A DNA stretch of 24,000 nt, taken from assembly GCA_965212165.1 (NCBI GenBank), contig OZ243096.1:2850048-2874047 (forward strand), read 5' to 3'. Source of the DNA: Balneolaceae bacterium. Its GTDB lineage: Bacteria > Bacteroidota > Rhodothermia > Balneolales > Balneolaceae. The notes beneath the pieces are model-generated. The model did no database searches. It had not been told where the DNA came from and saw nothing but the letters and a program-made list of their open reading frames with translations. The position numbers and the translations under genes are program-made. The number at the start of each line of letters is the position of its first letter. Within the stretch, counting starts at the first letter, position 1. This document shows, one piece after another, positions 1-17,224 of this stretch.

Positions 1-135
1 CCTACTCCTTTTTATGAAGGTTTTATTCCTGAAACAGAAAAAGCTTATCTTTATATTTACGGATCAATTGATGTTGGAATAAAAGATAGTGGTATCTATT
101 CCGGAGATATTACTATTACTGTTAACTATGACTAA
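1..135 (+). CDS. 3' end of a secreted pilin-like fibre subunit (DUF4402/SCPU-like paralog), truncated by the window edge
   Basis: Frame 1 is open from nt 1 to TAA at 133-135 (PTPFYEGFIPETEKAYLYIYGSIDVGIKDSGIYSGDITITVNYD*). The tail aligns with the C-termini of the next two genes (G-x-Y-x-G-x-[IV]-x-[IL]-x-V-x-Y-[DN]-stop). It is absent from the ORF track because there is no start in the window. Confidence 0.55.
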   Translation, partial: PTPFYEGFIPETEKAYLYIYGSIDVGIKDSGIYSGDITITVNYD

Positions 136-667
136 TTTAAAGTTCTTATATCCCTTTTTAATTTTACTTTTTATTTCCTTTTTAGGAACCAATAATAGAA
201 CAAGTGCTCAATTTATAAATATTCAAATTATTGTTGAACCTGAATTAACAGCTAAAGTAGAACAAGAACTAAGGTTTGGGAATATAGTAAGTAATTCAGG
301 ATTAACGGATGTAGATCTTGGAGATACGAATATGGGCATTTTCAGTATCAAAGCTTTATATACACAAAGTGTATACATAGAATTAAATTTCCCAGACTTT
401 TTAGAGAATACTGATCCAGCATTTGATGATACTATTCCTTTATTTTTAGAAATTGCATATAACAATTCTGGGGTTGAGAATATTAGATCATCTAAGTTTT
501 TAACAAATAATGAAGGTTTTATTTCTATTTACGAACCCAGTAATGAAGGGGCTCCTAAAATCATATGGCAAGATTTGTACCTATATATTTTTGGGTCACT
601 TGATATTGGAAATATTCCAAATGGGATATATGAAGGAGAGGTTCAATTAATTGTTTACTACGACTAG
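128..667 (+). CDS. Secreted pilin-like subunit, DUF4402/SCPU-like (probable minor subunit)
   Basis: The ORF track gives 89..667 from a GTG. The in-frame ATG at 128 yields a clean signal peptide (MTNLKFLYPFLILLFISFLGTNNRTSAQ) and overlaps the upstream stop (ATGACTAA), suggesting translational coupling. It has ELRFGN near the mature N-terminus and the C-terminal motif GIYEGEVQLIVYYD*, paralogous to 1..135 and 831..1352. Confidence 0.6.
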   Translation: MTNLKFLYPFLILLFISFLGTNNRTSAQFINIQIIVEPELTAKVEQELRFGNIVSNSGLTDVDLGDTNMGIFSIKALYTQSVYIELNFPDFLENTDPAFDDTIPLFLEIAYNNSGVENIRSSKFLTNNEGFISIYEPSNEGAPKIIWQDLYLYIFGSLDIGNIPNGIYEGEVQLIVYYD

Positions 668-728
668 TCCTAATAAGATAAATTAAATACAATGCTTTTC
701 TATAAGCTACTCATCAAAACTTAAAGAA

Positions 729-740
729 TCTTAATTAAGA
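729..740. promoter_or_regulatory. 12-bp perfect palindrome TCTTAATTAAGA upstream of the major subunit gene (candidate operator)
   Basis: Read directly from the sequence; it is its own reverse complement and lies about 90 nt upstream of the ATG at 831. AT-rich palindromes arise by chance fairly often in such DNA. Confidence 0.2.
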
Positions 741-772
741 GAATTTAACTAGGACTACTTTTGGATTCTCAA

Positions 773-780
773 TAAGTTTG
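773..780 (+). promoter_or_regulatory. Candidate Bacteroidota-type -7 promoter box (TAAGTTTG matches TAnnTTTG) for the major subunit gene
   Basis: Exact match to the TAnnTTTG consensus about 50 nt upstream of the ATG at 831. The only nearby TTTG (760-763) is too close to be a canonical -33 box, so support is partial. Confidence 0.3.
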
Positions 781-830
781 TATTAGAAATTAAAAAAGAA
801 AGATTTTCCACAAATAAAACAATCCCTATC

Positions 831-1352
831 ATGAAAAATTTAAAGAACATATTTACTCTTTTAGCAGTTTTAGGATTAGCTACAACAGCGAATGCACAAA
901 CTGCCAATATTACTGCTTCAGCAGAAGTATTAGCTATCGTAACTGTTGAAAACACTGCTGATCTTGACTTTGGAAGTTTCCTTGACGGTACTTCTTCTAC
1001 TCAAGCATTGACTACTGCAAATATTGCAAATCTAGGTCTAGTTACCGTTAGTGGTCAAAGTGCATCTGCAAATATTGACTTTGCGATTAACGCTCCAGAT
1101 TCTCTAACTGCCGCTGGTGCTTTTGACAATTTACCTTTTGCACCTACTGCAACTTTAGCACAAAGTTCAGATGTTGACGGCGGTACAGATTATACTTTTG
1201 ACGGTAGTAACGATGGGACAGTAAATGTTGCTTCTTCAAATGCATCTGATTACCAGGTATATGTTGGCGGTACTGTTGATGCTGGTACAGGCCTTGGTGA
1301 TTTCGGTGGCACATACTCTGGCACTATTGTTATAACAGTCAGTTATAATTAA
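831..1352 (+). CDS. Secreted pilin-like subunit, DUF4402/SCPU-like (probable major fibre subunit)
   Basis: Signal peptide MKNLKNIFTLLAVLGLATTANAQ. ADLDFGSF motif near the mature N-terminus. C-terminal GTYSGTIVITVSYN* with a penultimate Tyr and a Gly 14 residues from the end. Ala/Thr/Gly/Asp-rich; the mature part has no Lys, Arg, His or Cys. It has its own upstream intergenic region and a strong terminator directly downstream. Confidence 0.7.
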   Translation: MKNLKNIFTLLAVLGLATTANAQTANITASAEVLAIVTVENTADLDFGSFLDGTSSTQALTTANIANLGLVTVSGQSASANIDFAINAPDSLTAAGAFDNLPFAPTATLAQSSDVDGGTDYTFDGSNDGTVNVASSNASDYQVYVGGTVDAGTGLGDFGGTYSGTIVITVSYN

Positions 1353-1372
1353 TTTAAATCAATTTTTTAAAA

Positions 1373-1409
1373 TGCCTTGACATAATAAATGTCAGGGCAT
1401 TTTTTTTTC
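1373..1409 (+). terminator. Rho-independent terminator or attenuator after the major subunit gene
   Basis: Stem TGCCTTGACA (1373-1382), loop TAATAAA, stem TGTCAGGGCA (1390-1399). The stem has 10 bp including one G-T wobble and is followed by a run of 10 T (1400-1409). Confidence 0.75.
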
Positions 1410-1451
1410 TATTCATCGAGAAATAGTAAAAGTTCCGAACAATTGTTAATT

Positions 1452-1469
1452 TGAGTATTATCATACTCA
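1452..1469. promoter_or_regulatory. Inverted repeat TGAGTAT-tatc-ATACTCA between the terminator and the chaperone-like gene
   Basis: 7-bp perfect arms with a 4-nt spacer, 35 nt upstream of the ATG at 1504. It could be an operator or a small RNA hairpin. Confidence 0.25.
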
Positions 1470-1503
1470 GATATTTTAAGGCTAACAAACTTATTTAATA
1501 ATC

Positions 1504-2334
1504 ATGAAGAAGATTATTGCACTTACTTTTTTCTCTTTTCTAATTTTCATAGATTCTTTTGCTCAAGTAACTATAGCGCCAACAAACCTCTTTATAGACA
1601 GTAATTCTAGGTTTGGTACTTACATGGTTGTCAATGGATCTAATCAAGTTCAAGAAATATCAATTGATTTTTTCTTCGCATATAGTTCTACTGATGAATT
1701 TGGAAATAGAACCATCATTAGTGAGGATTCAGTAAAAGCTGTTCAATATTCCGTTGCTGAATCCATAAGAGCTTTTCCTCAAAATTTTTCACTTAGTCCT
1801 AATCAAAGACAGGTTGTTAGAATTAGAGTAAATATGCCAAATGATGTTCCTGATGGAACTTACTGGTCTCGTATAAGAACTGCATCTACACTACAAAGCC
1901 CTCCTATTGAATTGCAGAATTCTGATGCTGTATCAGCTAGTGTTGGTGTTAAAGTTGAACAAGTAACAGGTTTATTCTACAAAAAAGGAACTGTCTCTAC
2001 GGGTATTGAGATTGTAGATATAAATACAAATTTTGAAGAACCAGATAACATATTGGTTGTTCAAACACAGCATTTAAGAACTGGAAATTCTCCTTTTTTA
2101 GGGTCCATTTCTACATCGATTCTTAACAGTTCAGGAGAAGAAGTTCGAAGAGGGTTTGTATCTACAACGATTTATTTTGATGGAATTCATAAACAAGAAT
2201 TTGAAGTAGAAAATTTACCTTCAGGCACATATACTGCAAAAGTAACTTTTGAAACGAGTAGAAGTGATGTGTCAAATAACGATATTATTAAGGCCCCCAC
2301 TGTAACTAAATCTACAACTTTTACCATTAGGTGA
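1504..2334 (+). CDS. Periplasmic PapD-like pilus chaperone candidate (two-domain Ig-like protein)
   Basis: Signal peptide MKKIIALTFFSFLIFIDSFAQ. The mature N-terminus VTIAPTNLFIDSNSRFGTYMVVNGSNQVQEISIDFFF resembles the PapD_N pattern (v.l..tRvif......sl.v.N....p.l.q.w). A later SPNQRQVVRIRV resembles the P..re.l....v strand. The position between subunit genes and the large OM protein fits. The equivalent of the PapD Arg8 anchor appears to be Asn, so the protein is divergent. Confidence 0.5.
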   Translation: MKKIIALTFFSFLIFIDSFAQVTIAPTNLFIDSNSRFGTYMVVNGSNQVQEISIDFFFAYSSTDEFGNRTIISEDSVKAVQYSVAESIRAFPQNFSLSPNQRQVVRIRVNMPNDVPDGTYWSRIRTASTLQSPPIELQNSDAVSASVGVKVEQVTGLFYKKGTVSTGIEIVDINTNFEEPDNILVVQTQHLRTGNSPFLGSISTSILNSSGEEVRRGFVSTTIYFDGIHKQEFEVENLPSGTYTAKVTFETSRSDVSNNDIIKAPTVTKSTTFTIR

Positions 2335-5300
2335 TCTCCAAGTCTTTAAAGATATCCAATACATTAATCTCAATATTTTTCAGCCTCCTATTCTTATGTA
2401 CCCCTATATTTGCACAGAATAATGAAAATGATGAATTTGAGGTTTTCCTTTCTTTTCGTCATAGGGGAGTAATTGACAATCTTGTAGTCTCTTATTATAA
2501 AAGTGATGAATTTTTTCTACCACTTAATGAACTTTTCAATGTCTTTGAAATAGAGATTAATTCAAACGGTTTACAAACAAATGGTAATTTTTCTGCCAAT
2601 CAAATACCTTATTCTATTGATTTAGAAAAACAAATTATTCAATTTGGAAACGAAACATTCACACTCACTAAGGAAGATTTCTTAGTTAAAGAACTAGATA
2701 GCTATCTAAGAATTTCTCGTTTTAGTGAAGTTTTTGATCTTAATTTTGATGTTGACTTTAACAGCCTATCTCTTAGTCTACAAACAGATGTAGAACTACC
2801 TGCTGTAGCAAGAACTCTTCGAAATAGAACTAGAAGGATTACCGATAGATCAATAGATGAGGCGTTTCACCCTCTGCTTCAAAATTCATCGAAAAATTTT
2901 ATTGATCTAGGTTTCCTAGATTATAGTCTATCATCAAATATTAGGACGGATCAAACTAGCTATAATTACAATTCATCAATAGGAATGAAGATTGCAGGTG
3001 GTGATCTTCAAGGCTCATTTTTTGGAACATATACTAACCAATTTTCAACCTTTTCCACTAATAGATTTAGGTGGCAATTTATTAATAGGAATAGCAAACT
3101 ATTAAGTAGAGTAATTATTGGGCAAACATCAATGGATGGAGTTTTACCAAACTCTTATACAGGTATAAGAATTACAAATGAACCTATTGAAGCTAGACAA
3201 GTATTTGATGAATTTGAAATTGAAGGATCGACTTTTCCGGAGTCAGAAATTGAGCTTTATGTTAATAATTCATTAGTCGATTTCAGCACAGCTGATGATA
3301 TTGGGAACTACCGATTTCTAACCCCAATAAGCTATGGTTCATCACAACTCAGTCTTAAGATTTTTGGGCCAACTGGACAAGTTTTGGAGCAAAGAAAAAG
3401 AATTCAAGTCCCTTTTACATTTATTCCAGAAGGAGAGCTTAACTATGTAATAAATGCTGGTAGACTTGATAATCCAATTATAGGTTCAACAGTACGTAAT
3501 AATGTAATTCAAGCCAATACAGGTTATGGAATAACCAATTGGCTTACTACTAAAGTTGGAGTAGAGTATTATGAAAATTTAAATACTACAAATTCTACCA
3601 TTTTTACTTCATTGGTTTCAGCGAGATTTCTATATAACTATATTTTAAACCTGCAGGCAGTTTCTAATTCATTCTATCGCGCTTCAATTAATGCTGTTTA
3701 CCCAAATGCAGCAAGTGTTAATCTTGGTTATACCGATTATATCTCAAAAGCTTCATTACTTAATACTGCTGGAAATGATAAACAAATTAATGCAAGTTTA
3801 TTTTATCCATTAAAATTTTTAAAGATACCACTTAACTTTAGAGTTAGTAGTTTTTCACGTTATAGAGATAATAATGTATCAACAACTTTTAGAACAGATT
3901 TAAGTGTAAGACTTCAGAAATTCAATTTCAGATTTGGATATAGTGATAGACTTTTTGATTCTTATAACCCATTTAACTCAACAGATGCATCTGCTATTAT
4001 ATCTTCTGCTACATACAATGTGTCTAGAAATCCTACTATTCCTAGCATCTTAAGGGGAGCTTTTTTTAGAACTCAAATGAGATATTTTCCTAGTCGAAAT
4101 AGTATAGATTCATTTGAGTTTTTATACTCACGTAGCCTGTTAGGAAATGGAAGATTACAACTTGTTGCTGGTCGAAATTTTACAACTGGGCTAAATAATA
4201 TCCGTTTCAACCTTATTTTTGACTTTAAAAAAGTTAGAACTAATTCTACATTTATTAGAAATAATAACTCATTTAGCTCAACACAAAACATTAGAGGCTC
4301 TATTGGTTACGATTCAAATTATAGGAACTTTATTTTGACAAGCCGTGATCAAGTTGGAAGATCTGGAACTGCTATCAAGTTATTTGTAGATAATAATAAT
4401 AATAATGCTTTTGATGAAGGCGATGATTCAATAGATGATGGTGGTTTTAGAATAGGACGTTCAGGTTCTTCCTCCATAAAGAAAAATGGAATTATCTATT
4501 ATACACAAATGCAGCCATATTTTAGATATAATATGGATATGAATAAAGGGTCAATTCAAAACCCAATGCTCGTACCAAATCTTGATAAGTTCTCTATTGT
4601 TACTGAACCCAATAGTTTTAAACAAATAGAAATTCCATTTTACATGTCCGGAGTAATCGATGGGAATATCCAAAGAATTTTTTCTACTGGAAAGCAAGAA
4701 GGAATTGGAGGGTTAAAAGTAACTTTAAAATCAACAGACAATGATTTTATAAAAGAACTCAGAACTTTTTCAGATGGTAGTTTTTATGAATATGAAGTTC
4801 CTCCTGGTGATTATGAACTATTTGTCGATCAGAACCAATTAGACTTATTAGGTGTTAAATCAAATCCTGTTAAATTAAATTTCACAGTTAATGCTATACC
4901 TGAAGGTGATTTCGTAGAGGGCTTATCATTAATACTACTACCAACTGAGGAAACTGAAGAATCTGAATTAGATTCATTAATTATTCAACCTCTAACACTT
5001 TCTGAAGTTGGAATTGAAATACGTAATAGCCCGGAAATACTAGTTCTAGAACAAAAACTTAATGAAGATGTGAGCAGAGCACTTAGAATGTTGATCTTGG
5101 CTCAAAATGCATTCTATGCTCAAGATATTGAGGGTGCTTTGGATAATATTAATCGTTCATTAGAATTCTTTAAGACTGCTCAAGGATATGCTTTAAAGGG
5201 AAGTATACTGTATTTTAAGGGTGATAGAGTTGAGGCTGTAAATAGCTGGAGAATGGCATTACGCTACGATCCCGACATTTACATTCCAACCTTAGAAGAA

Positions 5301-5336
5301 TTGGATCAAAGAGTTACTATTAGTTCTTCAGACTAA
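2331..5336 (+). CDS. Large outer-membrane usher-like protein with two C-terminal beta-sandwich-like domains and a terminal TPR-like module
   Basis: GTG start overlaps the chaperone stop (GTGA at 2331-2334). Signal peptide MISKSLKISNTLISIFFSLLFLCTPIFAQ. About 650 aa are Asn/Ser/Tyr/Phe/Arg-rich with alternating patterns typical of a beta-barrel. An SdrD-B/prealbumin-like segment follows (FVDNNNNNAFDEGDDSIDDGGFRIG, about 4365-4500). A CarboxypepD_reg-like segment follows that (GVIDGNIQRIF...GLKVTLKS...TFSDGSFYEYEVPPGDYELFV, about 4650-4905). Then comes an acidic linker (PTEETEESELD) and a TPR-like end (5061-5333). The usher call rests on gene order and architecture, not on a recognised usher motif. 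Confidence 0.5.
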   Translation: MISKSLKISNTLISIFFSLLFLCTPIFAQNNENDEFEVFLSFRHRGVIDNLVVSYYKSDEFFLPLNELFNVFEIEINSNGLQTNGNFSANQIPYSIDLEKQIIQFGNETFTLTKEDFLVKELDSYLRISRFSEVFDLNFDVDFNSLSLSLQTDVELPAVARTLRNRTRRITDRSIDEAFHPLLQNSSKNFIDLGFLDYSLSSNIRTDQTSYNYNSSIGMKIAGGDLQGSFFGTYTNQFSTFSTNRFRWQFINRNSKLLSRVIIGQTSMDGVLPNSYTGIRITNEPIEARQVFDEFEIEGSTFPESEIELYVNNSLVDFSTADDIGNYRFLTPISYGSSQLSLKIFGPTGQVLEQRKRIQVPFTFIPEGELNYVINAGRLDNPIIGSTVRNNVIQANTGYGITNWLTTKVGVEYYENLNTTNSTIFTSLVSARFLYNYILNLQAVSNSFYRASINAVYPNAASVNLGYTDYISKASLLNTAGNDKQINASLFYPLKFLKIPLNFRVSSFSRYRDNNVSTTFRTDLSVRLQKFNFRFGYSDRLFDSYNPFNSTDASAIISSATYNVSRNPTIPSILRGAFFRTQMRYFPSRNSIDSFEFLYSRSLLGNGRLQLVAGRNFTTGLNNIRFNLIFDFKKVRTNSTFIRNNNSFSSTQNIRGSIGYDSNYRNFILTSRDQVGRSGTAIKLFVDNNNNNAFDEGDDSIDDGGFRIGRSGSSSIKKNGIIYYTQMQPYFRYNMDMNKGSIQNPMLVPNLDKFSIVTEPNSFKQIEIPFYMSGVIDGNIQRIFSTGKQEGIGGLKVTLKSTDNDFIKELRTFSDGSFYEYEVPPGDYELFVDQNQLDLLGVKSNPVKLNFTVNAIPEGDFVEGLSLILLPTEETEESELDSLIIQPLTLSEVGIEIRNSPEILVLEQKLNEDVSRALRMLILAQNAFYAQDIEGALDNINRSLEFFKTAQGYALKGSILYFKGDRVEAVNSWRMALRYDPDIYIPTLEELDQRVTISSSD
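4392..4406 (+). repeat. (AAT)5 trinucleotide repeat encoding Asn5 inside the usher-like gene
   Basis: Read directly: gat aat aat aat aat aat gct. It is in frame, so slippage would change the Asn count rather than the reading frame. Confidence 0.9.
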
Positions 5337-5405
5337 TTCTTTTTTCATCTTAATAACAAATTAAATACATCTACAGCACTTAGATTGGTAATAGCTGATA
5401 CTTTT

Positions 5406-7178
5406 ATGAAGCATATCTTTCATAGTATTATTGTTCTCCTCTTTATGTCTGCGAATTTATTTTCACAGTCTAACGCTTCAAATGCATCTAATTCTCAATC
5501 CTTAGAGCTTAAAATCTCTTCTCTTGAGCAAAGCTATGACTCTCAAGTTTATCTGCTTTTATCAAATTATTTTGATCGTAAAAAGTTTTTTGTTGATGTA
5601 AACATAAATGCTGAGTTTGTAGATGAAACCGTAGAGTCTACTCAAAACCAAGTTATTCAGAATAGACCTGATAACTTGATGATGCCGGGCCTCCCTTTTC
5701 TACCTCAAGAAAATATTAGAGCAAATACAGGTGCCCAATCTCCTCAAACAGTGGTAAATCAAAGTACCATTAGAACCCTGAGGCTTGTAAATATTAATAT
5801 TAGTATTTACGCCGATACTTCTTTTTCGGTACAAGAAATTCAATTTATGAGCTTATTAACTGGAATTGCTGCTAAGACCAATGACGCACGTGGTGATGAG
5901 GTAACAATAGCTCAAATTCCTATCCCTACTGTTGGTACTGTTGACCCTATTCCAATTATTCAAGCTCCCTCAGAGCCTGTAAGTATTCTCGCCTCTTTTA
6001 GATCTTATATACCAGGTTTTGTACTTTTAATGCTTTTTGGTGCGATCATGTTCTTATCAAGGATTTTTAACAAACCAGAAGATCAGGTGTCCTCTTTACA
6101 GCAAAGAGAAAGTATTAAACATGATATTTCGATAAGTGATTTTGGGCGCCCAATGGAACAAGTTCTTGTCAATAGTTCCGATGCTGGAAGAGATATCTCT
6201 ATAGAGATTGACGAATTGATCAATAGCTTCTTCAATAAATCACAAGAAATTGCTCTTTTATTTGAGTATTGGTTAGATGAAAACAAAGAAGAAGGTGCTT
6301 TTAAAGCTGCTGAAATAATCGCTTGTGTAGACAAACAATTATTGAGAGCCATTAAAAATGATCTCCAACCTGAGAACTTAGAATTAATTACTACAGCCTT
6401 AGAAGACCTTGCACCAATGATGTCGGAAAGAAAGAGTTCCGTAATAAGAAGCTTTAATTCTATTCTTAGAACTGGAAATAAAACCAGTCTTACTTCCAAG
6501 AAAAATGGCCATATAAATTTATTCAAATTTCTTGACCATATTTCAGATGCTCAGATCGTAGATTTATTAAATGATGAGGGTTATCAAACAGGGGCTTTAA
6601 TAGTAGATTATTTACCTGATGAAAAAGCAGCTCGTGTGTTAGATAGAATTGATAAAGTACGCAGTGCTAATATTATGTTTAAGATGACTACCATCAGTAG
6701 TATTCCTTATCAATTACAAAGTGAGATTTCTTCAAAGCTTTTTGATAAAGCGATGGACTTAAAAGACAAAGAGAAAGAACAACAATTAGGTGCTGAAAAT
6801 ATTCTTCCACTTCTTGATAAACTACCTCTAAGTGAACAACAAGCTTATATAGATCAATTAAAAGCTACCAATTCCGTTGTTGGTGAAGTTGTTCAACGAC
6901 AGTTTATTACCATTAATCAAGTGTTAACTTTAACAGATGATATTATAAAAGAGGCTATCCAAGATATTGATACTTCTACCCTCTTAGATGCTTTACTTGG
7001 CTTAGATCAAAAACTAGTTGATAAATTCCTTTCCGTACGTCCAAAAAGAGAGCAACGTCTTATTCGTTTAGAACTTGATGAATTAAAAGACAAGCCACAA
7101 AAAGATACGAATGAAGCGAAATCTGAAATTATGAAAAGAATTAGATTGACTGTTAAGAAAAGTCATTCTGCAACATAA
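5406..7178 (+). CDS. Membrane protein combining a FliF/YscJ-like periplasmic ring motif, a TM helix and a complete FliG-like (N/M/C) cytoplasmic region
   Basis: The ORF track gives 5385..7178 from a TTG; the ATG at 5406 yields MKHIFHSIIVLLFMSANLFSQ (signal or anchor). The periplasmic part ends IRTLRLVNINISIYADTSFSVQEIQFMSLLTGIAAKTNDARGDEVTIAQIP, like the FliF pre-TM2 motif (...RGD.v.V). TM helix IPGFVLLMLFGAIMFLSRIF lies at 6009-6068. LLNDEGYQTGALIVDYLPDEKAARVL resembles the FliG_M pattern EHPQTiAliLsyL.p..AA.vL. ALLGLDQKLVDKFLSVRPKREQRLIRLELDELKDKPQKDTNEAKSEIMKRIR resembles the FliG_C pattern ALKGasdELkeKifkNMSkRAa.ll.deLe.mGPVrlkDVEEAQ..I...iR. Confidence 0.75.
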   Translation: MKHIFHSIIVLLFMSANLFSQSNASNASNSQSLELKISSLEQSYDSQVYLLLSNYFDRKKFFVDVNINAEFVDETVESTQNQVIQNRPDNLMMPGLPFLPQENIRANTGAQSPQTVVNQSTIRTLRLVNINISIYADTSFSVQEIQFMSLLTGIAAKTNDARGDEVTIAQIPIPTVGTVDPIPIIQAPSEPVSILASFRSYIPGFVLLMLFGAIMFLSRIFNKPEDQVSSLQQRESIKHDISISDFGRPMEQVLVNSSDAGRDISIEIDELINSFFNKSQEIALLFEYWLDENKEEGAFKAAEIIACVDKQLLRAIKNDLQPENLELITTALEDLAPMMSERKSSVIRSFNSILRTGNKTSLTSKKNGHINLFKFLDHISDAQIVDLLNDEGYQTGALIVDYLPDEKAARVLDRIDKVRSANIMFKMTTISSIPYQLQSEISSKLFDKAMDLKDKEKEQQLGAENILPLLDKLPLSEQQAYIDQLKATNSVVGEVVQRQFITINQVLTLTDDIIKEAIQDIDTSTLLDALLGLDQKLVDKFLSVRPKREQRLIRLELDELKDKPQKDTNEAKSEIMKRIRLTVKKSHSAT

Positions 7179-7185
7179 CTTTAAG

Positions 7186-7710
7186 ATCGACCACAAAAGT
7201 TACATATTACTCCTTCTGCCGATTCTATTCATTTTTATAAGCTGTAGAGGATCGAATCAACTTTCACAATCAAACTCACAAGAACAAATTGCTTCTAACG
7301 AAGATGTAGCCAATTCTACAGAAGTTCCTGTTCAAACACGTGAAGATAGCGCTTTGGCTAGAAGAAATGCGTTAGTCGAAGTTTATAAAGATGAACTGAA
7401 CGAAATTTATAGAGCAGATGCTAATGGTATCATCTCCTATTATATACTAGCTCAACAACGCTTTTATAATGGAGATTATCAGAATGCACTTATTTACGCA
7501 AATAGGGCCGCAAATATCAAAGAAAATGCTGATATATTAGCTTTAAAAGGTAGTATTTACTTAGGATTAGGATTGAATGAAAACTTTGTTGCAAATTGGA
7601 GACAAGCTCTAGAGTTAGACCCTGACGTTCCTCTCCCAATTTCACCATATATTATTCAACAATTACAATTGAACGGATTAATTGATGCAAACCTAAAAAA
7701 AGCTTTTTAG
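7186..7710 (+). CDS. Lipoprotein with a TPR-like module paralogous to the C-terminus of the usher-like protein
   Basis: The ORF track gives 7354..7710 from a TTG, and that is the conservative call. The frame is open from 7150 and encodes a textbook lipoprotein signal (..KIDHKSYILLLLPILFIFISC|RGSNQ) followed by a low-complexity linker. There is no ATG, GTG or TTG before 7354. The start is tentatively placed at the ATC at 7186. The stop TAG at 7708-7710 is firm. The TPR-like part (7423-7653) is YILAQQRFYNGDYQNALIYANRA...ALKGSIYLGLG...ANWRQALELDPDVPLP. Confidence 0.55.
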   Translation: MDHKSYILLLLPILFIFISCRGSNQLSQSNSQEQIASNEDVANSTEVPVQTREDSALARRNALVEVYKDELNEIYRADANGIISYYILAQQRFYNGDYQNALIYANRAANIKENADILALKGSIYLGLGLNENFVANWRQALELDPDVPLPISPYIIQQLQLNGLIDANLKKAF

Positions 7711-7722
7711 GTAAGATTACTG

Positions 7723-8520
7723 ATGAAAACATCCATACTAAACATATTAAGCTTTCTAGTTTCTATTGTAATCCTTATATGGGGATCAGTGCTTGTGATG
7801 GGGTTTGCCGAATATAATCTAATCCCTCCTATTTATGACTTTTTGAATATCCCTAGTTTAGCTATTGTATTTGGCGGCATTTCAGCTAGTGTATTTATTA
7901 GCTATCCATTTAAACAAGTTGTAACTGCTTTAAGAGCGAGTATGCGTCTTTTTTCTCATAGTACCATCACCGATGAAGTACTTGAACGTGATATTGATTT
8001 AATTTTGGAGTGGCAAAAAAAAATTAATACCAATAAGATTCAAGCCGTGGCAACTCTTAGTCAGCAGTATGAAGATAAATTTGAGGGTTATCTATTTTCC
8101 GTACTTGATACCAATTATAGTAACGAAGAGCTTCGTGAGTTAGGAGAAATAAACATAACTGAGAATTACACTCGTCAACAACAAATTACTCAAATCATAT
8201 CAAGTATGGGTAAAACATCTCCTGTTTTTGGTATGCTTGGAACTCTATTTGGCTTAATTGTTATTCTCTCCGGTTTTAGTGAAGTAGAGTCTTTGTTAAC
8301 AGGATTAGGGGCTGCTTTAATGACCACTCTTTACGGTATTTTAATTGGGAACTTCGTTTTTACCCCAATGGCAAAAAAAATGGAAAGTACGGCTGCTTTA
8401 CAATATTTTAGAGAGAAACTTATTCTTGAAGGTATAATCCTAATTGAAGAACATAAAACTTCTCTACAGATATATGACCGCCTTCAAGCACATATGAGAA
8501 GAAATAAGTATACGATGTAG
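7723..8520 (+). CDS. MotA/PomA-like proton-channel stator subunit (4 TM helices)
   Basis: N-terminal pair of TM helices, including the MotA-like PSLAIVFGGISASVFISYP. A cytoplasmic loop of about 100 aa follows. Then comes the MotA/TolQ/ExbB signature SPVFGMLGTLFGLIVILSGF ... LGAALMTTLYGILIGNFVFTPMAKKME. The 12-nt gap to the upstream gene suggests co-transcription. Confidence 0.85.
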   Translation: MKTSILNILSFLVSIVILIWGSVLVMGFAEYNLIPPIYDFLNIPSLAIVFGGISASVFISYPFKQVVTALRASMRLFSHSTITDEVLERDIDLILEWQKKINTNKIQAVATLSQQYEDKFEGYLFSVLDTNYSNEELRELGEINITENYTRQQQITQIISSMGKTSPVFGMLGTLFGLIVILSGFSEVESLLTGLGAALMTTLYGILIGNFVFTPMAKKMESTAALQYFREKLILEGIILIEEHKTSLQIYDRLQAHMRRNKYTM

Positions 8521-8542
8521 ATCATTACTAGATACTTAAGAT

Positions 8543-10279
8543 TTGAAAGAAAACCGTATAAATAACTCCTATTCACTCTATCCAAAAGCCGCTGTTGAGG
8601 ATTTAGATGATGATAGTTGGCAAGTTAGCTACCTTGATATTATTACTATTATACTTGGCTTTCTTATAATACTTCTCTCCATTTCTCAAATTGCAAAACC
8701 TGAATTTTCCTCTCTTTCTACCGTATTTGGCAATTCTTCTGATAAAACTGAATTCATTACAACTCCTATTGAGGAAATTCAAGAGGAACTTGAATCTCTT
8801 TTACGAACGCAGATTGATGAAGGTAGATTAATTGTTTATAGAGATTTAAATGATATCCGAATCCGTTTAAAAGGCGATGATTTTTATAGTTCTGGTAGTG
8901 CCGATTTACAGGGTGAAGGATTAGATTTATTGAATCATGTGATACGAGCTTTTCAACAGACAGAGTACTCAGATTTTAATATCGAAGTTGAAGGACATAC
9001 AGATAATGTTCCTATTAGAACGGCCGGGTTTTCATCTAATTGGGAACTATCTACAGCAAGAGCATCAAACGTCGTCAAATATTTCGACCGCATGGGCCTA
9101 GAGCAAGAACGACTCAAAGCTTCAGGTTATGCAGATTCTAGACCCTTAGTTCAACTTGATTCATTCGGTAATCCTTTCGCTGCATCAAAAGAACAAAACA
9201 GAAGAATAGTTTTAAGATTGTACTACACTTCTGAAGGCCTAGAGAAAAGGGCAATTCAGCAAGCCCTTGCAGATAATCAAGAAGAGCTTATAAACGCCGA
9301 TGTTACTACTCCTGAACCTGACTCACAAACAGACCTAATTGCACAAGAATTACTTGCAATAAGTGCTTCTAACAATAATGAGAAGATTCCAGCTATTCCT
9401 GAAACAGTGGAAGAAGCTCCTACTCCTGTATTACAAGATGATCCAATTGAAGAAGTTGATCCAGTTCCAACTTCTGTTCCAGAACCTTTAAATTCAAATG
9501 AATTACCTAATATACCTTCCTTCCTAGATGGAAATATATCATGCAGTTTCATTATTCAAGTTGGTAGCTTCCAATCACTATCTTCTGGCTTTCAAGTTGC
9601 TAATAATGCAAAAATCCAAACAGGTTTAGATTTTGAGGTTGCTTCAAATGGCCGACTCTATTCAGTTCGATCAAACCCAACATCATCATTTTCTGAAGCT
9701 TTAACTTATCATAATGAAGTTAAAACGAAACTAAATGATTCAAATGTTGGGCTCATACATCAATGCTATGAAGGTGAACAAGAAATACCGTCAACACTAC
9801 AGTATCAAATTCAATTTGGAGCCTTCCAAAGTCAAGAAAATGCACTCAGCTATACAATTAGATTAGATAAGGAGTATCAGATTCAAACATATATGAATCG
9901 TCGATCCGAGACTTATAACATTGTAGCAGGTCCTTATGAAAGTAGAGAACGTGTATTGAGTCAACTTAGATCGTTTAAAGAAAAAGGTGTAAATGAAAAT
10001 ATCTTTATAAAACCGATTACTGAAAGTACATCCGACTATAAATATGCTTATCAATTACAACTGGATTCATTTAACTCAATTAATGAAGCACAAATTGTTT
10101 CAACACGAATAGCTGAAACATTAGGGATAGTTTCAACAGTTGCTAGATCTACTGATGGAACCTATCTTCTCTTAACAGATAGAACTTCTAATTGGGATGA
10201 AACCATTTCAAATTACGAACGATTTAAGTCTAGAGTACCTAGTTCAACTCCTGTCATCTATTTTCTAGAGTATATATAA
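8543..10279 (+). CDS. MotB-like stator subunit with an OmpA-type peptidoglycan-binding domain, a Pro/Glu linker and three C-terminal SPOR-like repeats
   Basis: TTG start. The TM segment SWQVSYLDIITIILGFLIILLS carries the conserved channel Asp (GAT at 8636-8638). OmpA_C motifs are present (VEGHTDNVPI...SNWELSTARASNVV...GYADSRP...NRRIVLRL, about 8825-9223). The linker TTPEPD...EAPTPVLQDDPIEEVDPVPTSVPEP follows. Three SPOR-like units lie at about 9542-10267 (FIIQVGSFQS...LYSVRSNP; YQIQFGAFQSQENA...YNIVAGPYESRE; YAYQLQLDSFNSINEA...YLLLTD). Confidence 0.85.
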   Translation: MKENRINNSYSLYPKAAVEDLDDDSWQVSYLDIITIILGFLIILLSISQIAKPEFSSLSTVFGNSSDKTEFITTPIEEIQEELESLLRTQIDEGRLIVYRDLNDIRIRLKGDDFYSSGSADLQGEGLDLLNHVIRAFQQTEYSDFNIEVEGHTDNVPIRTAGFSSNWELSTARASNVVKYFDRMGLEQERLKASGYADSRPLVQLDSFGNPFAASKEQNRRIVLRLYYTSEGLEKRAIQQALADNQEELINADVTTPEPDSQTDLIAQELLAISASNNNEKIPAIPETVEEAPTPVLQDDPIEEVDPVPTSVPEPLNSNELPNIPSFLDGNISCSFIIQVGSFQSLSSGFQVANNAKIQTGLDFEVASNGRLYSVRSNPTSSFSEALTYHNEVKTKLNDSNVGLIHQCYEGEQEIPSTLQYQIQFGAFQSQENALSYTIRLDKEYQIQTYMNRRSETYNIVAGPYESRERVLSQLRSFKEKGVNENIFIKPITESTSDYKYAYQLQLDSFNSINEAQIVSTRIAETLGIVSTVARSTDGTYLLLTDRTSNWDETISNYERFKSRVPSSTPVIYFLEYI

Positions 10280-10311
10280 AAAAAGCTTCCTGATATTCTC
10301 AAGAAGCTTTT
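10278..10311. terminator. Hairpin terminator shared by the convergent MotB-like and pdhC genes (stronger for the minus strand)
   Basis: AAAAGCTTCCTGA (10281-10293), loop TATTC, TCAAGAAGCTTTT (10299-10311), with one internal mismatch. On the minus strand the hairpin runs into a T7 tract (A run at 10278-10284 on the plus strand). On the plus strand only TTTT follows. Confidence 0.6.
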
Positions 10312-10331
10312 CATAAAATGTAGAAATTTCT

Positions 10332-11579
10332 TTAAAGTAGCATTGAAAGTGGATTTTCAATTAAATTCCTAACCGTGTTCAAAAATTGAGCTGCTTTTGC
10401 TCCATCTACAACTCTATGATCACTTGATAAAGTAACTTTCATTCTTTTACCCGGAACAATTTCACCATTCTCAATTACAGGTATATCTCTAATTGCACCA
10501 ACAGCAAGAATACAAGCATTTGGTGGATTAATTATTGCTGTAAACTCTTCAATCCCAAACATTCCAAGATTACTTATAGTAAATGTACTCCCTTCCATTT
10601 GGTCGGGTTGTAATTTTCGATCACGAGCAAGACCTGCTAGTTCACGTGTTTCTGCAGAAATTTGAGATAAGCCTTTTTTGTCAACATGATTTATAACAGG
10701 CGTCATTAAGCCTTCATCAATTGCTACTGCGATTGCAATATTTACGTCTCCATGCTCCATAATTACATCATCATGCCAAGAGCTATTAATTGCTTGATGT
10801 CGCGTTAGAGCAACAGCACAAGCTTTAACAACGATATCATTAAAACTGATCTTAACATCATTTGCATCATTCATTGATTTTCTAGCTTCAAAAGCAGCCT
10901 TCATATCAATGTCGATGGTTTCGTAAAAGTGAGGATTAGTAAATTTACTTTCTGAAAGTCTACGAGCAATAACTTTTCTCATTTGAGAAACCTTTATTTC
11001 TTTACTTTCAAGACTATCAAATGTTGGTGCTGGAGTAGATGCTGTTGCTACAGGTTTTGTTAGTCCAGAAGATGAACCTGCTTTGAAATCTTCAACATCT
11101 TTTTTAATAATTCTACCTTCAGGTCCTGAACCATTAACACCTGATAAATCAATACCTTTATCCTCAGCAATTTTCTTAGCTAGAGGTGATGCTTTTACTC
11201 TTCCATTATCTGATGAAGAGCTTGAAGAAGATGAACTTTCTTCCTTTACGGGTGCACTAGAAGTTTCCTGTTTAGTATTTTCAGTTTTTTCTGGCATAGA
11301 TGAAGCCTCATCTCCTTCAAGAAGTGCAGAGATATCTTCACCTTCTTCTCCAACTATAGCAATAATACCACCCAATGGAACGGCATCGCCTTCACCGGGA
11401 ACAATTTTTAAAATAGTTCCTCCATCAAAAACCTCAACATCCATAGTGGCTTTATCGGTTTCGACTTCCGCAATAATATCCCCAGCTTCTACTTTATCGC
11501 CTTCTTGTACATTCCATTTAGCAATAACCCCTTCTTCCATGGTATCGCTGAGTTTGGGCATTTCAATCTTAATTGCCAT
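10332..11579 (-). CDS. pdhC: Dihydrolipoamide acetyltransferase, E2 component of pyruvate dehydrogenase
   Basis: Lipoyl domain MPKLSDTMEEGVIAKWNVQEGDKV..AEVETDKATMDVE. Ser-rich linker. Subunit-binding domain SPLAKKIAEDKGIDLSGVNGSGPEGRIIKKDV. Catalytic DHRVVDG near the C-terminus. Confidence 0.95.
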   Translation of the reverse strand: MAIKIEMPKLSDTMEEGVIAKWNVQEGDKVEAGDIIAEVETDKATMDVEVFDGGTILKIVPGEGDAVPLGGIIAIVGEEGEDISALLEGDEASSMPEKTENTKQETSSAPVKEESSSSSSSSSDNGRVKASPLAKKIAEDKGIDLSGVNGSGPEGRIIKKDVEDFKAGSSSGLTKPVATASTPAPTFDSLESKEIKVSQMRKVIARRLSESKFTNPHFYETIDIDMKAAFEARKSMNDANDVKISFNDIVVKACAVALTRHQAINSSWHDDVIMEHGDVNIAIAVAIDEGLMTPVINHVDKKGLSQISAETRELAGLARDRKLQPDQMEGSTFTISNLGMFGIEEFTAIINPPNACILAVGAIRDIPVIENGEIVPGKRMKVTLSSDHRVVDGAKAAQFLNTVRNLIENPLSMLL

Positions 11580-11600
11580 AGTGTGCTTTATTGAGTGATT

Positions 11601-12584: not shown

Positions 12585-12602
12585 CTATCTATCTCTAAAA
12601 TT

Positions 12603-13703: not shown

Positions 13704-13790
13704 GCTTATTCTTTTATTATCATGAACCAATTTTCAAGGCTCAAAATATATCTATTTTTTTGGAAGTTTTCGTGAACAGATTGAATTGAT

Positions 13791-16460: not shown

Positions 16461-16577
16461 TAATTTGTGCTGTAGAAATTTTGAATTTTAGGGTTGTGAA
16501 GATAGAAAATTTCCAACTCTAACTCATGGAACTAATTGTGTTAGCTTAAGGTACCAACTAATAACAAACAAAAAGTG

Positions 16578-17153: not shown

Positions 17154-17224
17154 AGAAATGTCTTTTTGAATAAACAGTTTAACAGTATTATAATTCAAGC
17201 AAATTACTAACTATCCTTTCAGCT

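Follow-up and report, generated by a model that had tools for sequence, protein, structure and literature searches.

Chaperone-usher pili and the flagellar motor are among the known systems closest to the locus analyzed here. The archaic (sigma) class of the former is exemplified by the Acinetobacter Csu pili and the Myxococcus spore-coat-protein-U systems. In the Chlamydiaceae, which have no flagellum, a shortened FliF is naturally fused to FliG sequence (Bergeron 2016, PMC4768692). The chlamydial protein of about 330 amino acids retains RBM2, lacks the RBM3/SpoIIIAG-like domain and carries only a FliG-M-like region; it has been discussed together with the injectisome in a paper that lists no stator genes among the retained flagellar genes (PMC4768692). 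Engineered FliF-FliG fusions of Salmonella and Vibrio are laboratory constructs with full-length FliF in complete flagella, and the covalent fusion is reported to assemble rings (PMC6079021, PMC11481574). A possible functional analogy is offered by TolQR-TolA-Pal/CpoB, ExbBD-TonB, GldLM-T9SS and AglRQS-Glt, in which an ion-driven inner-membrane motor is tied to an outer-membrane protein (PMC12204202). These 5:2 motors share TPR and peptidoglycan-binding accessory proteins with the locus, but they use extended periplasmic transducers (TolA, TonB, GldM) and no FliG ring. A combination of an usher with FliFG/MotAB was not found in the literature searched.

Gene content and organization of the locus

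The window, i.e. the whole 24,000-nt stretch of DNA analyzed (marine Balneolaceae bacterium, contig OZ243096.1, positions 2,850,048-2,874,047), carries nine co-directional genes on the + strand at 1-10279. They code for three DUF4402-type fibre subunits, a chaperone-like protein, an usher, a FliF/FliG fusion, a TPR lipoprotein, MotA and MotB-OmpA-SPOR, in this order. The following features were assigned.

1..135, + strand: fibre-subunit gene, 3' end only, with a DUF4402-like C-terminus ...GIYSGDITITVNYD (translation)
128..667, + strand: fibre subunit paralog of 179 aa with signal peptide and penultimate Tyr (ORF, ATGACTAA overlap)
831..1352, + strand: DUF4402 subunit (PF14352, 26.7 bits vs a cut-off of 25.2)
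1369..1403, + strand: terminator-like or attenuator hairpin, 15-bp stem and T run, 3' of the DUF4402 gene
1504..2334, + strand: periplasmic chaperone-like protein of 276 aa with signal peptide (assignment inferred)
2331..4997, + strand: body of the outer-membrane usher, with N-terminal domain, barrel with inserted middle domain and two C-terminal beta-sandwich domains (AF2 and Foldseek)
4998..5336, + strand: C-terminal TPR module fused to the usher, helices at residues 890-997 (AF2)
5406..7178, + strand: rotor protein FliFG, 590 aa (Pfam, AF2, Foldseek)
within 5406..7178, + strand: signal/N-terminal helix of FliFG
about 5484-5915, + strand: FliF RBM3/collar-like periplasmic domain (Foldseek)
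5679-5705, + strand: conserved MPGLPFLP loop in the FliF-like domain
6009-6068, + strand: single membrane helix of FliFG
6294-7148, + strand: FliG_N/M/C domains (Pfam, above cut-off)
7186..7710, + strand: TPR lipoprotein, lipobox LFIFISC, non-canonical start
7723..8520, + strand: MotA-type stator A subunit (PF01618)
8543..10279, + strand: MotB-type stator B subunit (Pfam; PDB matches to MotB/PomB)
8609-8731, + strand: MotB plug and membrane helix with conserved Asp
8885-9151, + strand: MotB OmpA peptidoglycan-binding domain, followed by a linker
about 9530-10276, + strand: SPOR-repeat tail of MotB
10280..10312, no strand assigned: bidirectional terminator-like hairpin at the end of the locus (hairpin search), with convergent pdh/alaS genes beyond

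With the flagellar motor core the locus shares FliG N/M/C and a FliF RBM3/beta-collar-like periplasmic domain, and with flagellar stators a MotA/MotB pair with plug, conserved Asp, conserved prolines and OmpA domain. Unlike in the flagellar motor, FliF and FliG are joined in a single polypeptide, which lacks RBM1 and RBM2 and has lost the EHPQR FliM-binding motif, and the partners are a TPR lipoprotein and an usher (or a small outer-membrane protein, OMP). The chlamydial protein is likewise a natural fusion, but here RBM3/collar and the full FliG are retained and MotAB is encoded alongside. As far as the class is generally known, chaperone-usher pili, especially the archaic ones, resemble the other half in their small secreted subunits, a periplasmic protein of ~275 aa, a large FimD/PapC-fold usher, a subunit end of the form Gly...Tyr-x and a terminator-like hairpin after the probable major subunit gene. 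Unlike in these pili, the usher has a C-terminal TPR extension (SPOR in relatives), the chaperone cannot be recognised as PapD-like from its sequence and the operon runs on into rotor and stator genes; relatives carry a giant T9SS-type adhesin upstream.

The preliminary description had correctly seen a co-directional run but counted ten genes. The overlaps it reported at 128-135 (ATGACTAA, where the partial subunit gene ending at 135 covers the next ATG) and at 2331-2334 (GTGA, 4 nt, between the chaperone-like gene and the usher start) are real, as are the gaps at 7711-7722 and 8521-8542 and, if FliFG starts at ATG 5406, the 69-nt gap at 5337-5405. No ATG, GTG or TTG lies ahead of the lipobox in the TPR lipoprotein gene, which probably starts at ATC 7186. 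The convergent terminator claimed before pdh/alaS corresponds to the hairpin at 10280-10312, and motB followed by this shared terminator is an operon signal. Downstream of the DUF4402 gene lies a strong terminator-like hairpin (1369-1403), which suggests that the subunit genes may form their own, attenuated transcription unit; hairpins of other sequence occupy the equivalent place in the related loci L001 (6028-6054) and L003 (6048-6075). A hairpin search detected no terminator-like site at the usher-FliFG junction (5337-5405), in line with the one apparent operon of the preliminary description, for which there is sequence evidence only and no transcript data. The usher-to-FliFG intervals of L001 (17 nt) and L003 (1 nt) were also free of terminator-like hairpins. 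The reported absence of other flagellar genes extends to the whole 24-kb window, in which Pfam and ORF analysis revealed no FliM/N, export gate, rod, hook or filament genes.

Protein folds and functional residues

All subunit paralogs, including the partial product of 1..135, have the C-terminal motif G-x-Y-x-G...Y-[DN] in common. The product of 128..667 has no Pfam match of its own; it aligns with DUF4402 paralogs and has orthologs of 45-47% identity in L001, L003 and L005. The DUF4402 protein encoded at 831..1352 is the probable major subunit. The chaperone-like gene always lies directly upstream of the usher, in motor-less loci too. Its 276-aa product matched no Pfam or PDB profile, and alignment to E. 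coli PapD-like chaperones with hhalign gave a probability of only 14.7% (E 0.0018, 124 collinear columns). The 'PapD-like chaperone' of the preliminary description is thus unconfirmed, and a function as fibre chaperone is inferred and unproven.

The usher-like protein of roughly 1000 aa proved to be 1001 aa long with a full FimD/PapC usher fold. The AF2 model has a pLDDT of 81, and the top 18 Foldseek matches in the PDB are all FimD/PapC (E 5e-29 to 3e-9), with alignments of up to about 900 columns. The TPR tail is 34% identical to the TPR lipoproteins of its own locus and of the stand-alone motor operon described below (E 1e-13 and 3e-14); the two TPR-like modules recognized earlier are hence homologs of one another and of the lipoprotein of that operon. 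An HMM trained on the lipoproteins alone and searched against 120 usher homologs matched the C-terminus of 63, which comprise the entire ~1000-aa class (901-1020 aa; 58/58) and five shorter proteins; it had no match among the 49 SPOR-tailed or the 8 short ushers. Every motor-linked usher examined falls in the ~1000-aa class; those of motor-less loci are SPOR-tailed or tail-less.

Pfam domains scoring above the gathering score are DUF4402, FliG_N/M/C, MotA_ExbB, MotB_plug, OmpA and SPOR. Foldseek searches with the FliFG model retrieved FliG (E 3e-8) and the RBM3/collar of the FliF MS-ring (E about 1e-5, TM 0.55-0.63 on target); confidence in this model is only moderate (pLDDT 69, pTM 0.31), and it represents a single protein, no ring. 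The best NCBIfam/PDB matches of MotA are flagellar MotP/MotA/PomA (8ucs, E 1e-23); ExbB/TolQ chains are absent from the PDB matches at E <= 1e-3, and NCBIfam yields only a weak match to ExbB. The assignments of the preliminary description hold in this respect: the FliF-like/FliG protein by Pfam and Foldseek, MotA and MotB-OmpA-SPOR by Pfam and by PDB/NCBIfam matches to flagellar stators. Equivalog scores are far under the cut-off (FliG 65.6 vs 226.7; MotA 115 vs 394). The functional-residue alignment revealed an invariant equivalent of FliG R281 and a Glu at the position of D289; the equivalents of K264, D288 and R297 are not conserved. The MotB D32 equivalent is invariant and the equivalents of MotA P173 and P222 are conserved, and the mapping of the charged MotA residues that contact FliG is ambiguous. 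The SPOR tail of MotB is collinear with that of the Gracilimonas usher (E 1e-14).

The two halves apart and together

Each half is found on its own in other genomes. The fibre module is found without the motor in Gracilimonas and Marinimicrobia, and fibre loci of relatives are preceded by a gene for a giant T9SS-type adhesin. A five-gene operon, FliFG-OMP-TPR-MotA-MotB, stands alone in 44 genomes; FliFG-OMP is kept in all 44 operons with a contig reaching beyond FliFG, and TPR-MotA-MotB wherever the contig covers it. The gene for this OMP of about 360 aa is absent from the linked loci, though invariant in the stand-alone operon. The TPR lipoprotein gene is present in all linked loci with readable DNA and in all stand-alone operons whose contig covers it. 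Linked and stand-alone motors are paralogs that coexist in the same Balneolaceae genomes. At 50% identity, 133 FliFG representatives score E < 1e-30, mostly full-length fusions, and the family extends over Balneolaceae, Rhodothermia, Bacteroidota and Fibrobacteres assemblies. The stand-alone operon is also carried by Gracilimonas tropica, which is non-motile (PMC5167729) and whose genome was reported to be without flagellar-assembly genes (PMC9909488). Judged from the sequences, coupling is obligatory for neither half, as both also exist alone. Classical usher assembly needs no energy and the modules are functional apart elsewhere; the motor is therefore unnecessary for fibre assembly as such.

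A survey proposed with the preliminary description found the pilin/usher and FliFG-MotAB halves syntenic in other genomes. Within Balneolaceae, FliFG follows the usher in the window, in L001/L002 and in L003/L004 (FliFG 40-47% identical); the pdh/alaS flank is conserved as well, so that these loci alone are no proof of selection for linkage. The P0405 contig, for which no DNA is on record, has the order DUF4402, 284 aa, 962 aa, FliFG, 156 aa, MotA, MotB between different flanks (PAS/histidine-kinase/sigma-54 genes), and its cluster representative P0276 shares <=24% identity with other non-Balneolaceae FliFG representatives. On L058, a 2.7-kb fragment of high-GC metagenome origin, a TPR-tailed usher (41% identity, E 1e-107) lies 87 nt upstream of a FliFG of only 22% identity. 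The adjacency is thus conserved in three deeply diverged lineages with FliFG only 22-24% identical, and unrelated flanks are documented in one of them (P0405). Among 31 usher/FliFG homolog pairs on equally long contigs, the locus tags were adjacent in two.

Possible coupling of the motor to the usher

We consider it fairly probable, though by no means established, that the locus specifies a machine of two modules that spans the envelope, in which a FliFG/MotAB motor is coupled via TPR adaptors to a fibre-secreting usher. In the first module, a chaperone-usher-type fibre system, DUF4402 subunits would be exported into the periplasm, where the 276-aa chaperone-like protein presumably holds them, and would then be polymerised and secreted via the FimD/PapC-fold usher in the outer membrane. 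In the second, a minimal flagellar-type motor, the FliF(RBM3/collar)-helix-FliG fusion would be expected to assemble into a ring in the inner membrane, with its cytoplasmic FliG C-domains opposite MotA/MotB stator units, which would be held to the peptidoglycan via their OmpA and SPOR domains. Proton or sodium flow through MotAB, where the Asp of the MotB helix is conserved, would turn this ring or exert a cyclic force on it. The work may be relayed across the periplasm to the usher by the two homologous TPR modules, namely the lipoprotein and the periplasmic C-terminus of the usher; the invariant LPGLPxxP loop, located at the collar tip of the FliF-like domain, is a possible docking site for both. 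The small OMP would be the output partner in the ancestral stand-alone operon, and the usher may have taken its place here. Likely outputs would be a moved or rotated fibre base, surface motility or gating of the usher. Folds and domains, TPR homology, recurrent adjacency and absence of the small OMP rest on direct evidence, whereas ring formation, rotation, all physical contacts and the output are inferred, and the lack of a periplasm-spanning rod or shaft in the locus speaks against the model. The coupled rotor/stator-usher machine put forward in the preliminary description is supported by comparative genomics, without transcript, interaction or phenotype data.

It is also conceivable, but in our view doubtful, that the coupling is not rotary and that FliFG/MotAB/TPR serves as an energised tether, of the Tol-Pal or TonB kind, for an outer-membrane protein. 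Ion flow would then pull, position or gate the small OMP (stand-alone) or the usher (linked), for instance by opening the usher plug, anchoring the usher to peptidoglycan or recruiting it to a cell site, and the fibre would not be turned. Tensile force is a common means by which 5:2 motors power processes at the outer membrane (PMC12204202), and the peptidoglycan-binding OmpA and SPOR domains together with the TPR lipoprotein recall Tol-Pal/CpoB. Where the motor is missing, the usher itself carries the SPOR tail, suggesting that attachment of the usher to the wall is the conserved need, and the missing rod fits a tether too. However, the stator partner is a full FliG N/M/C fused to the ring-building RBM3/collar of FliF, not a TonB/TolA-like extended transducer, and MotA and MotB are nearest to flagellar stators, not to ExbBD/TolQR. 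To our knowledge, FliG rings rotate in every studied case (flagellar motor).

Two independent systems, with the fibre and FliFG/MotAB operons being neighbours by shared chromosome ancestry without any functional link, seem improbable. The solitary occurrence of each half, the conserved downstream pdh/alaS flank in Balneolaceae and the 69-nt gap ahead of FliFG in the window would be in keeping with this explanation. They are opposed by an adjacency that persists at such low FliFG identity and between unrelated P0405 flanks, by a motor-type TPR on the ~1000-aa ushers that is absent from the SPOR-tailed motor-less ones, by linked motors that lack an OMP of their own, and by the 1-nt gap in L003 and a junction without a terminator-like site. 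The observed adjacency in distant lineages, the homology of the TPR tail and the lost OMP therefore make a coupled machine more likely than a chance neighbourhood of two systems. That FliG, MotA and MotB are the decaying remnant of a lost flagellum, as the automatic annotation 'flagellar motor switch protein FliG' and the interpretation of incomplete KEGG flagellar pathways in Balneolaceae as gradual loss (PMC9909488) might suggest, can hardly be upheld for intact genes with a conserved fusion, conserved partners (OMP or usher, TPR lipoprotein), invariant key residues, two paralogs per genome and a broad taxonomic range, of which the stand-alone type occurs in the non-motile G. tropica.

If the proposed coupling of the FliFG/MotAB motor to the usher is true, the locus would encode an ion-driven machine acting on an outer-membrane fibre pore.

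Gene layout and transcription signals

The locus occupies positions 1-10279 of the + strand, in a window of low GC content (29-40%). The preliminary description had counted ten co-directional + strand genes in it, whereas nine are counted at 1-10279. Its intergenic gaps were all correct on re-reading, and the 4-nt GTGA overlap between the 276-aa protein gene and the usher gene, the overlap (ATGACTAA) at the start of the second subunit gene and the end of the locus at a convergent terminator next to the pdh and alaS genes (hairpin 10280-10312) are all present.

Genes and hairpins of the locus
ends at 135, + strand: truncated subunit gene (ORF)
128-667, + strand: second subunit gene, with the ATG overlapping the preceding stop (ATGACTAA)
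831-1352, + strand: DUF4402 subunit gene (Pfam)
1369-1403: hairpin and T run 3' of the last DUF4402 gene
1504-2334, + strand: 276-aa secreted protein (ORF, signal peptide)
2331-5336, + strand: 1001-aa usher, 4-nt overlap (GTGA) with the gene before
5406 (ATG) to 7178, + strand: 590-aa FliF/FliG fusion, FliFG (ORF, Pfam)
7186 (probable ATC start) to 7710, + strand: TPR lipoprotein (ORF, lipobox)
7723-8520, + strand: MotA-like protein (Pfam)
8543-10279, + strand: MotB-like protein (Pfam)
10280-10312: bidirectional hairpin closing the locus before the convergent pdhC, pdhB, pdhA and alaS

From 7180 on, the frame of the TPR lipoprotein has no stop, and it specifies a good lipoprotein signal (KSYILLLLPILFIFISC; window 7180-7353). 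The ATC at 7186 is probably its start, because no ATG, GTG or TTG precedes this signal in the open frame from 7180. Gene callers would shorten the protein to the TTG at 7354, with loss of the lipobox.

The last DUF4402 gene has a strong hairpin behind it in the window and in two Balneolaceae loci with linked fibre and motor genes, L001 (6028-6054) and L003 (6048-6075), the position of the hairpin being kept and its sequence not. In none of these three loci does a terminator-like hairpin separate usher from FliFG. This arrangement suggests two units: one for the subunits, which is attenuated, and after it one for assembly plus motor, with its end at the motB terminator. The hairpin after the DUF4402 gene resembles the attenuator behind the major-subunit genes of classical pilus operons. 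In L003, a sigma-70-like site (11/12) lies 3' of it at 6082-6110, and a toxin-antitoxin-like pair of PIN-domain and DUF6364 genes (15101-15756) is placed between motB and pdhC. A sigma-70 promoter scan was uninformative (31 sites observed vs 45 expected).

The remainder of the window (10332-24000) is ordinary and encodes pdhC/B/A, alaS, DUF502, a gamma-glutamyltranspeptidase, a ferredoxin-reductase-like protein, a response regulator, a DAO-family oxidoreductase and MerC, together with two minus-strand proteins without a Pfam match (19972-20769 and 21305-22162). No tRNA was found in the 14 kb after the locus. A mobile-element or HGT island was rejected on account of a GC content (29-37%) close to that of the flanks and the absence of mobility genes.

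Fibre and motor proteins

In the AF2 model of the usher (pLDDT 81), the N-terminal domain is followed by a large barrel that has another domain inserted in it; next come two C-terminal beta-sandwiches and, last, a helical tail (890-997). A Foldseek search of the PDB with this model has FimD or PapC in each of the first 18 places (E 5e-29 to 3e-9, over as many as ~900 columns), and the usher-like outer-membrane protein proposed from the sequence thereby gains a FimD/PapC usher fold. In sequence the relation hardly shows, and only the fold search made it clear: the Pfam Usher family (PF00577) does not match the window usher above its gathering score and matches 3 of 24 usher homologs (best E 1.5e-5), and a profile of the homologs retrieved no usher chain from the PDB sequences.

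Hallmarks of chaperone-usher subunits are donor-strand complementation and a conserved C-terminal strand with a Gly ~14 residues from the end and a penultimate Tyr. The small secreted proteins have a signal peptide and an LDFG motif in common, and the C-terminal motif G-x-Y-x-G...Y-[D/N] is invariant in 16 paralogs. DUF4402 (PF14352) matches 831-1352 at 26.7 bits vs a gathering cut-off of 25.2 and is found in 8 of 10 subunit paralogs, in 2 of them above the cut-off; the 128-667 product has no DUF4402 match of its own. The pilin-like subunits of the preliminary description are thus backed by a DUF4402 match and a shared C-terminal motif. In secretion and C-terminal strand motif, the small proteins thus qualify as chaperone-usher subunits, as far as sequence can show.

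The 276-aa protein has no Pfam match (PapD_N or PapD_C) and no PDB profile match. Aligned by hhalign, it reaches a probability of 0.6% with FimC alone and only 14.7% (E 0.0018) with six E. coli PapD-like chaperones, over 124 columns of domain 1 that are collinear through the hallmark strands. Its position, size and signal peptide are compatible with a periplasmic chaperone. The PapD-like chaperone proposed earlier therefore fits the context, but PapD-like sequence is unsupported, and a chaperone role rests on gene context and remains unproven. The locus is like chaperone-usher pili in parts, and differs by the TPR or SPOR tail of the usher and by the unrecognisable chaperone.

In Balneola, Gracilimonas and Marinimicrobia, the gene immediately 5' of the subunit genes encodes a giant protein of 2100-2500 aa; Gracilimonas and Marinimicrobia are represented by loci with a fibre module and no motor.

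Giant protein genes
L001 (Balneolaceae), 1-3512
L005 (Gracilimonas), 1-269
L006 (Marinimicrobia), 195-6563
L007 (Marinimicrobia), 613-7044

The protein carries DUF2341, Laminin_G_3, Invasin_D3 and a T9SS C-terminal sorting domain; it may be a fibre-associated adhesin, and is probably also encoded upstream of window nt 1. Between its gene and the DUF4402 genes lie further small secreted proteins and a DUF4900 protein (L003 792-3685, L005 400-5776). Because of these extra genes in some relatives, the fibre module may be larger than the part visible in the window.

Each of the three FliG domains of FliFG passes its Pfam cut-off (FliG_N 28.2, FliG_M 41.4 and FliG_C 45.3 bits); together they span residues 304-588 of the 5385 ORF. 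The AF2 model of this ORF, which is of moderate quality (pLDDT 69, low pTM), runs from an N-terminal helix through a periplasmic unit of alpha-beta-beta-alpha-beta type, whose hairpin is very long, and a membrane helix (209-228) to the FliG helices. Foldseek matched the FliFG model to FliG (E 3e-8), to the RBM3/beta-collar of the FliF MS ring (~15 chains, E about 1e-5, TM 0.55-0.63 on target) and also to SpoIIIAG. On the strength of the separate FliG and RBM3/collar matches, the 590-aa protein is, in its predicted fold, a natural mini-FliF/FliG fusion. The FliF-like part of the preliminary description is upheld by this fold, the YscJ_FliF HMM of Pfam giving no match in FliFG. Membership of the FliF family is not met, since the protein has one domain (RBM3/collar) vs RBM1-3 between two membrane helices, nor is the cut-off of the FliG equivalog (TIGR00207) reached (65.6 vs 226.7 bits). 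The nearest precedent for the fusion is chlamydial FliF-FliG, but its domains are different, and no stator genes are listed among the flagellar genes that Chlamydia keeps (PMC4768692).

Pfam recognises MotA_ExbB in the MotA-like protein and MotB_plug, OmpA and SPOR in the MotB-like protein, all above the gathering score. The nearest NCBIfam models are MotP, MotA and PomA for the former (115 vs an equivalog cut-off of 394) and MotD, MotB and MotS for the latter (137 vs 283). Among PDB chains, flagellar MotA aligns with the MotA-like protein over the full length (8ucs, 6ysf; E 1e-23), and the MotB-like protein matches MotB and PomB. Pfam, NCBIfam, PDB and Foldseek searches thus agree on the FliG and MotAB assignments first made by reading alone. 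The features of a stator (a MotA_ExbB channel with prolines; MotB plug, Asp and OmpA; flagellar nearest relatives) are, as far as homology can tell, met, yet in a distinct subfamily, because the equivalog cut-offs are missed.

A non-rotary, Tol-like energised tether is a rival reading of the same proteins. ExbB is only a weak NCBIfam match to the MotA-like protein (E 0.003). No ExbB or TolQ chain is found for this protein in the PDB at E ≤ 1e-3, and likeness to the Tol/Ton/Gld 5:2 systems is not met: the protein is MotA-like, not ExbB/TolQ-like, and no TonB/TolA/GldM-type transducer-like gene is present in the locus. Such a tether is unlikely, although it cannot be set aside.

To judge whether the motor is likely to work, individual residues were compared between linked motors (FliFG-TPR-MotA-MotB beside an usher) and stand-alone ones (a five-gene operon without usher), with the numbering of the E. 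coli proteins from NC_000913.3. The membrane-helix Asp of MotB (D32), Pro173 and Pro222 of MotA and Arg281 of FliG are invariant in both forms. At FliG D289, linked and Balneolaceae stand-alone forms have Glu, and FliG K264, D288 and R297 are not conserved. HMMER and MAFFT alignments disagree on the charged loop of MotA (R90/E98 equivalents), for which no mapping is claimed. In the FliM-binding EHPQR motif of FliG, E125 alone survives from EHPQ and K mostly takes the place of R160, a loss that fits the absence of FliM and FliN.

Linkage of the two modules and their separate occurrence

The order subunits, chaperone-like protein, usher, FliFG, TPR, MotA, MotB-SPOR is kept in Balneolaceae loci, in which FliFG is 40-47% identical and the usher-FliFG gap measures 17 nt (L001) or 1 nt (L003). 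The neighbourhood survey proposed in the preliminary description therefore finds pilin, chaperone-like and usher genes syntenic with FliFG-MotAB in other genomes. In all, 31 usher/FliFG homolog pairs share contigs of equal length, two of them with consecutive locus tags. Because the Balneolaceae loci share the pdh/alaS flank, two independent lineages weigh more. The 74-kb P0405 contig, for which only a gene table without DNA is available, encodes DUF4402 (179 aa), proteins of 284 and 962 aa, FliFG (632 aa), a protein of 156 aa, MotA and MotB, with PAS, histidine-kinase and sigma-54 regulator genes on the flanks; P0276, the representative of its cluster, shows ≤24% identity to the other non-Balneolaceae representatives compared. 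L058, a 2.7-kb fragment of a high-GC metagenome contig and the sole locus returned by a metagenome scan (with a narrow FliFG alignment), contains the C-terminal 426 aa of an usher, 41% identical to the window usher (E 1e-107, TPR tail included), and a FliFG, 22% identical only, that starts 87 nt downstream. A rough neighbour-joining tree, indicative only, places linked FliFG in one large clade apart from the stand-alone clade. In the third linked lineage, the FliFG homologs P0257 and P0260 have a ~100-aa N-terminal extension that is LysM-like by eye (YFIHEVTERQTYFSIADAYRVPLQQV...); if so, it would be a further peptidoglycan-binding add-on.

The helical tail of the usher shows 34% identity (E 1e-13) to the TPR lipoprotein of its own locus and also matches that of the stand-alone operon (E 3e-14), and is homologous to both. 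An HMM built from the lipoproteins only has its match at the very C-terminal end of the protein in 63 of 120 usher homologs, namely all 58 of 901-1020 aa and five shorter, apparently truncated ones (E 1e-29 to 3e-27 in five representatives), and none of the 49 SPOR-tailed or 8 short ushers. All motor-linked ushers examined are TPR-tailed; those of the motor-less loci examined are SPOR-tailed or tail-less. The small outer-membrane protein gene that is invariant in the stand-alone operon is missing in linked loci, in which the usher directly precedes FliFG. In this partner replacement, the small outer-membrane protein is lost and another outer-membrane protein, the usher with the TPR module of the motor, is present. 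The SPOR tail of MotB (window 9386-10270) is collinear with that of the Gracilimonas usher P0186 (L005 10001-13516; E 1e-14), and one insertion or deletion apparently joined or separated motor genes and usher. Insertion of a motor cassette into an usher-SPOR gene and a deletion creating the Gracilimonas fusion both fit the collinear tails, and the direction is undecidable.

Each module also occurs on its own. Subunits, chaperone-like protein and usher are found without FliG or Mot genes in three loci: L005, where the usher has 1171 aa and a C-terminal SPOR tail and is followed by convergent rpoN, and L006 and L007, with ushers of 860-867 aa and no tail. A FliFG profile search yielded 133 representatives at 50% identity (E < 1e-30), mostly full-length with ~600 aa. 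Five of them with an inspected context (L008, L009, L010, L011, L057) belong to the stand-alone operon, the contexts of most others being unseen. This operon consists of FliFG, a ~360-aa protein, a TPR lipoprotein, MotA and a short MotB between housekeeping genes. The ~360-aa protein ends in an aromatic residue, has a weak OMP_b-brl match and is probably a small outer-membrane barrel. Among species-representative genomes, 44 stand-alone loci were retrieved, from Balneola, Gracilimonas tropica DSM 19535, other Balneolaceae, a Rhodothermia MAG, Bacteroidota MAGs and Fibrobacteres, with the same gene order in every contig that reaches past FliFG. The stand-alone operon is a widespread, uncharacterised system in its own right. 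In Balneola sp. L009 it sits just after rpoBC (10001-14996); in the metagenome contig L008, a CheR methyltransferase gene lies 3' of it (6180-7001), which may hint at chemosensory control or be a coincidence. Given such separate existence, the two halves of the locus might be independent neighbours; in view of the conserved order, the distant lineages and the shared TPR module, this is improbable.

Several Balneolaceae chromosomes (e.g. OZ244125.1, CP051242.1, OZ244932.1, OZ271839.1) carry both the stand-alone and the linked motor, as judged from homolog records on contigs of equal size. The linked motor is therefore a paralog and not the only copy of the organism. According to their descriptions, Gracilimonas species are for the most part non-motile (PMC5167729; PMC12162075), G. 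tropica and Balneola genomes are reported without flagellar-assembly genes, and the flagellar-type genes of Balneolaceae have been treated as a 'broken' flagellar pathway (PMC9909488). The locus resembles the flagellar motor core in its FliG domains and stator but is without export apparatus, rod, hook and filament. The preliminary description had seen no other flagellar gene in the locus; genes for FliM/FliN, the type III export gate, rod, hook and filament are likewise absent from the whole 24-kb window, and none occurs within 10 kb of the 44 stand-alone or the linked loci (the rest of these genomes was not covered). Lacking FliM/N, export gate and axial genes as well as RBM1/2, and missing the equivalog scores, the locus fails membership as a flagellum. 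That it is a flagellar relic, as the 'broken' pathway would have it, can hardly be maintained beside an operon of such constant order.

Possible coupling of motor and fibre

The evidence is all computational; domains, homologies and linkage are observed in it, and ring assembly, rotation, contacts and output are inferred. MotA/MotB complexes would be fixed to peptidoglycan via their OmpA and SPOR domains, and ion conduction would push the FliG C-domains in a ring of FliFG subunits. The periplasmic collar of this ring may engage the TPR lipoprotein and the TPR tail of the usher, so that motor work would reach the usher extruding the DUF4402 fibre. The most conserved periplasmic feature across the FliFG family, an LPGLP(F/V)xP motif in the loop that caps the collar hairpin and is modelled with low confidence, is proposed as docking site for the TPR modules, an inference without contact data. 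The fibre module persists in motor-less relatives, so what the motor contributes is probably an extra property, such as movement, rotation, gating or positioning, and not assembly as such.

It is also conceivable, if doubtful, that the fibre is a motor-driven organelle, in which FliFG/MotAB rotate or translocate the chaperone-usher filament, whether or not the giant T9SS adhesin takes part. If true, prokaryotes would have one more kind of rotary or motile appendage that needs no type III secretion for its assembly, and the stand-alone operon would be a minimal FliG/MotAB rotary motor, possibly like a pre-flagellar stage or a reduced derivative. Balneola vulgaris reportedly has 'flagella' and is motile (Urios 2006, cited in PMC5167729); a motor-driven fibre could account for them in a genus reported without flagellar-assembly genes (PMC9909488).

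The rotor/stator pair sits in a small conserved operon without type III export, rod, hook or filament. To our knowledge, FliG working with MotAB is otherwise found only inside flagella. A literature search, with a survey of MotAB relatives (PMC12505986) and one of periplasmic force transducers (PMC12204202), found no non-flagellar FliG/MotAB and no motor-linked usher; subscription journals were only partly covered and an earlier description is not excluded. Annotations as 'flagellar motor switch protein FliG', 'MotA' or 'MotB' in Balneolaceae, Fibrobacteres and related assemblies are not evidence of flagella, intact or decayed. With three proteins (FliFG, MotA, MotB), a TPR lipoprotein and an outer-membrane partner, the motor is naturally minimal and attractive for structural and single-molecule study of torque generation. 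Whether a rotor-stator module could exist, usefully, apart from the flagellar export machinery is now testable. In the window and at least two distant lineages, this module is genetically wired to a chaperone-usher fibre pore, and if the coupling is real, it would be a new way to deliver ion-motive energy to the outer membrane and the first energised chaperone-usher system.
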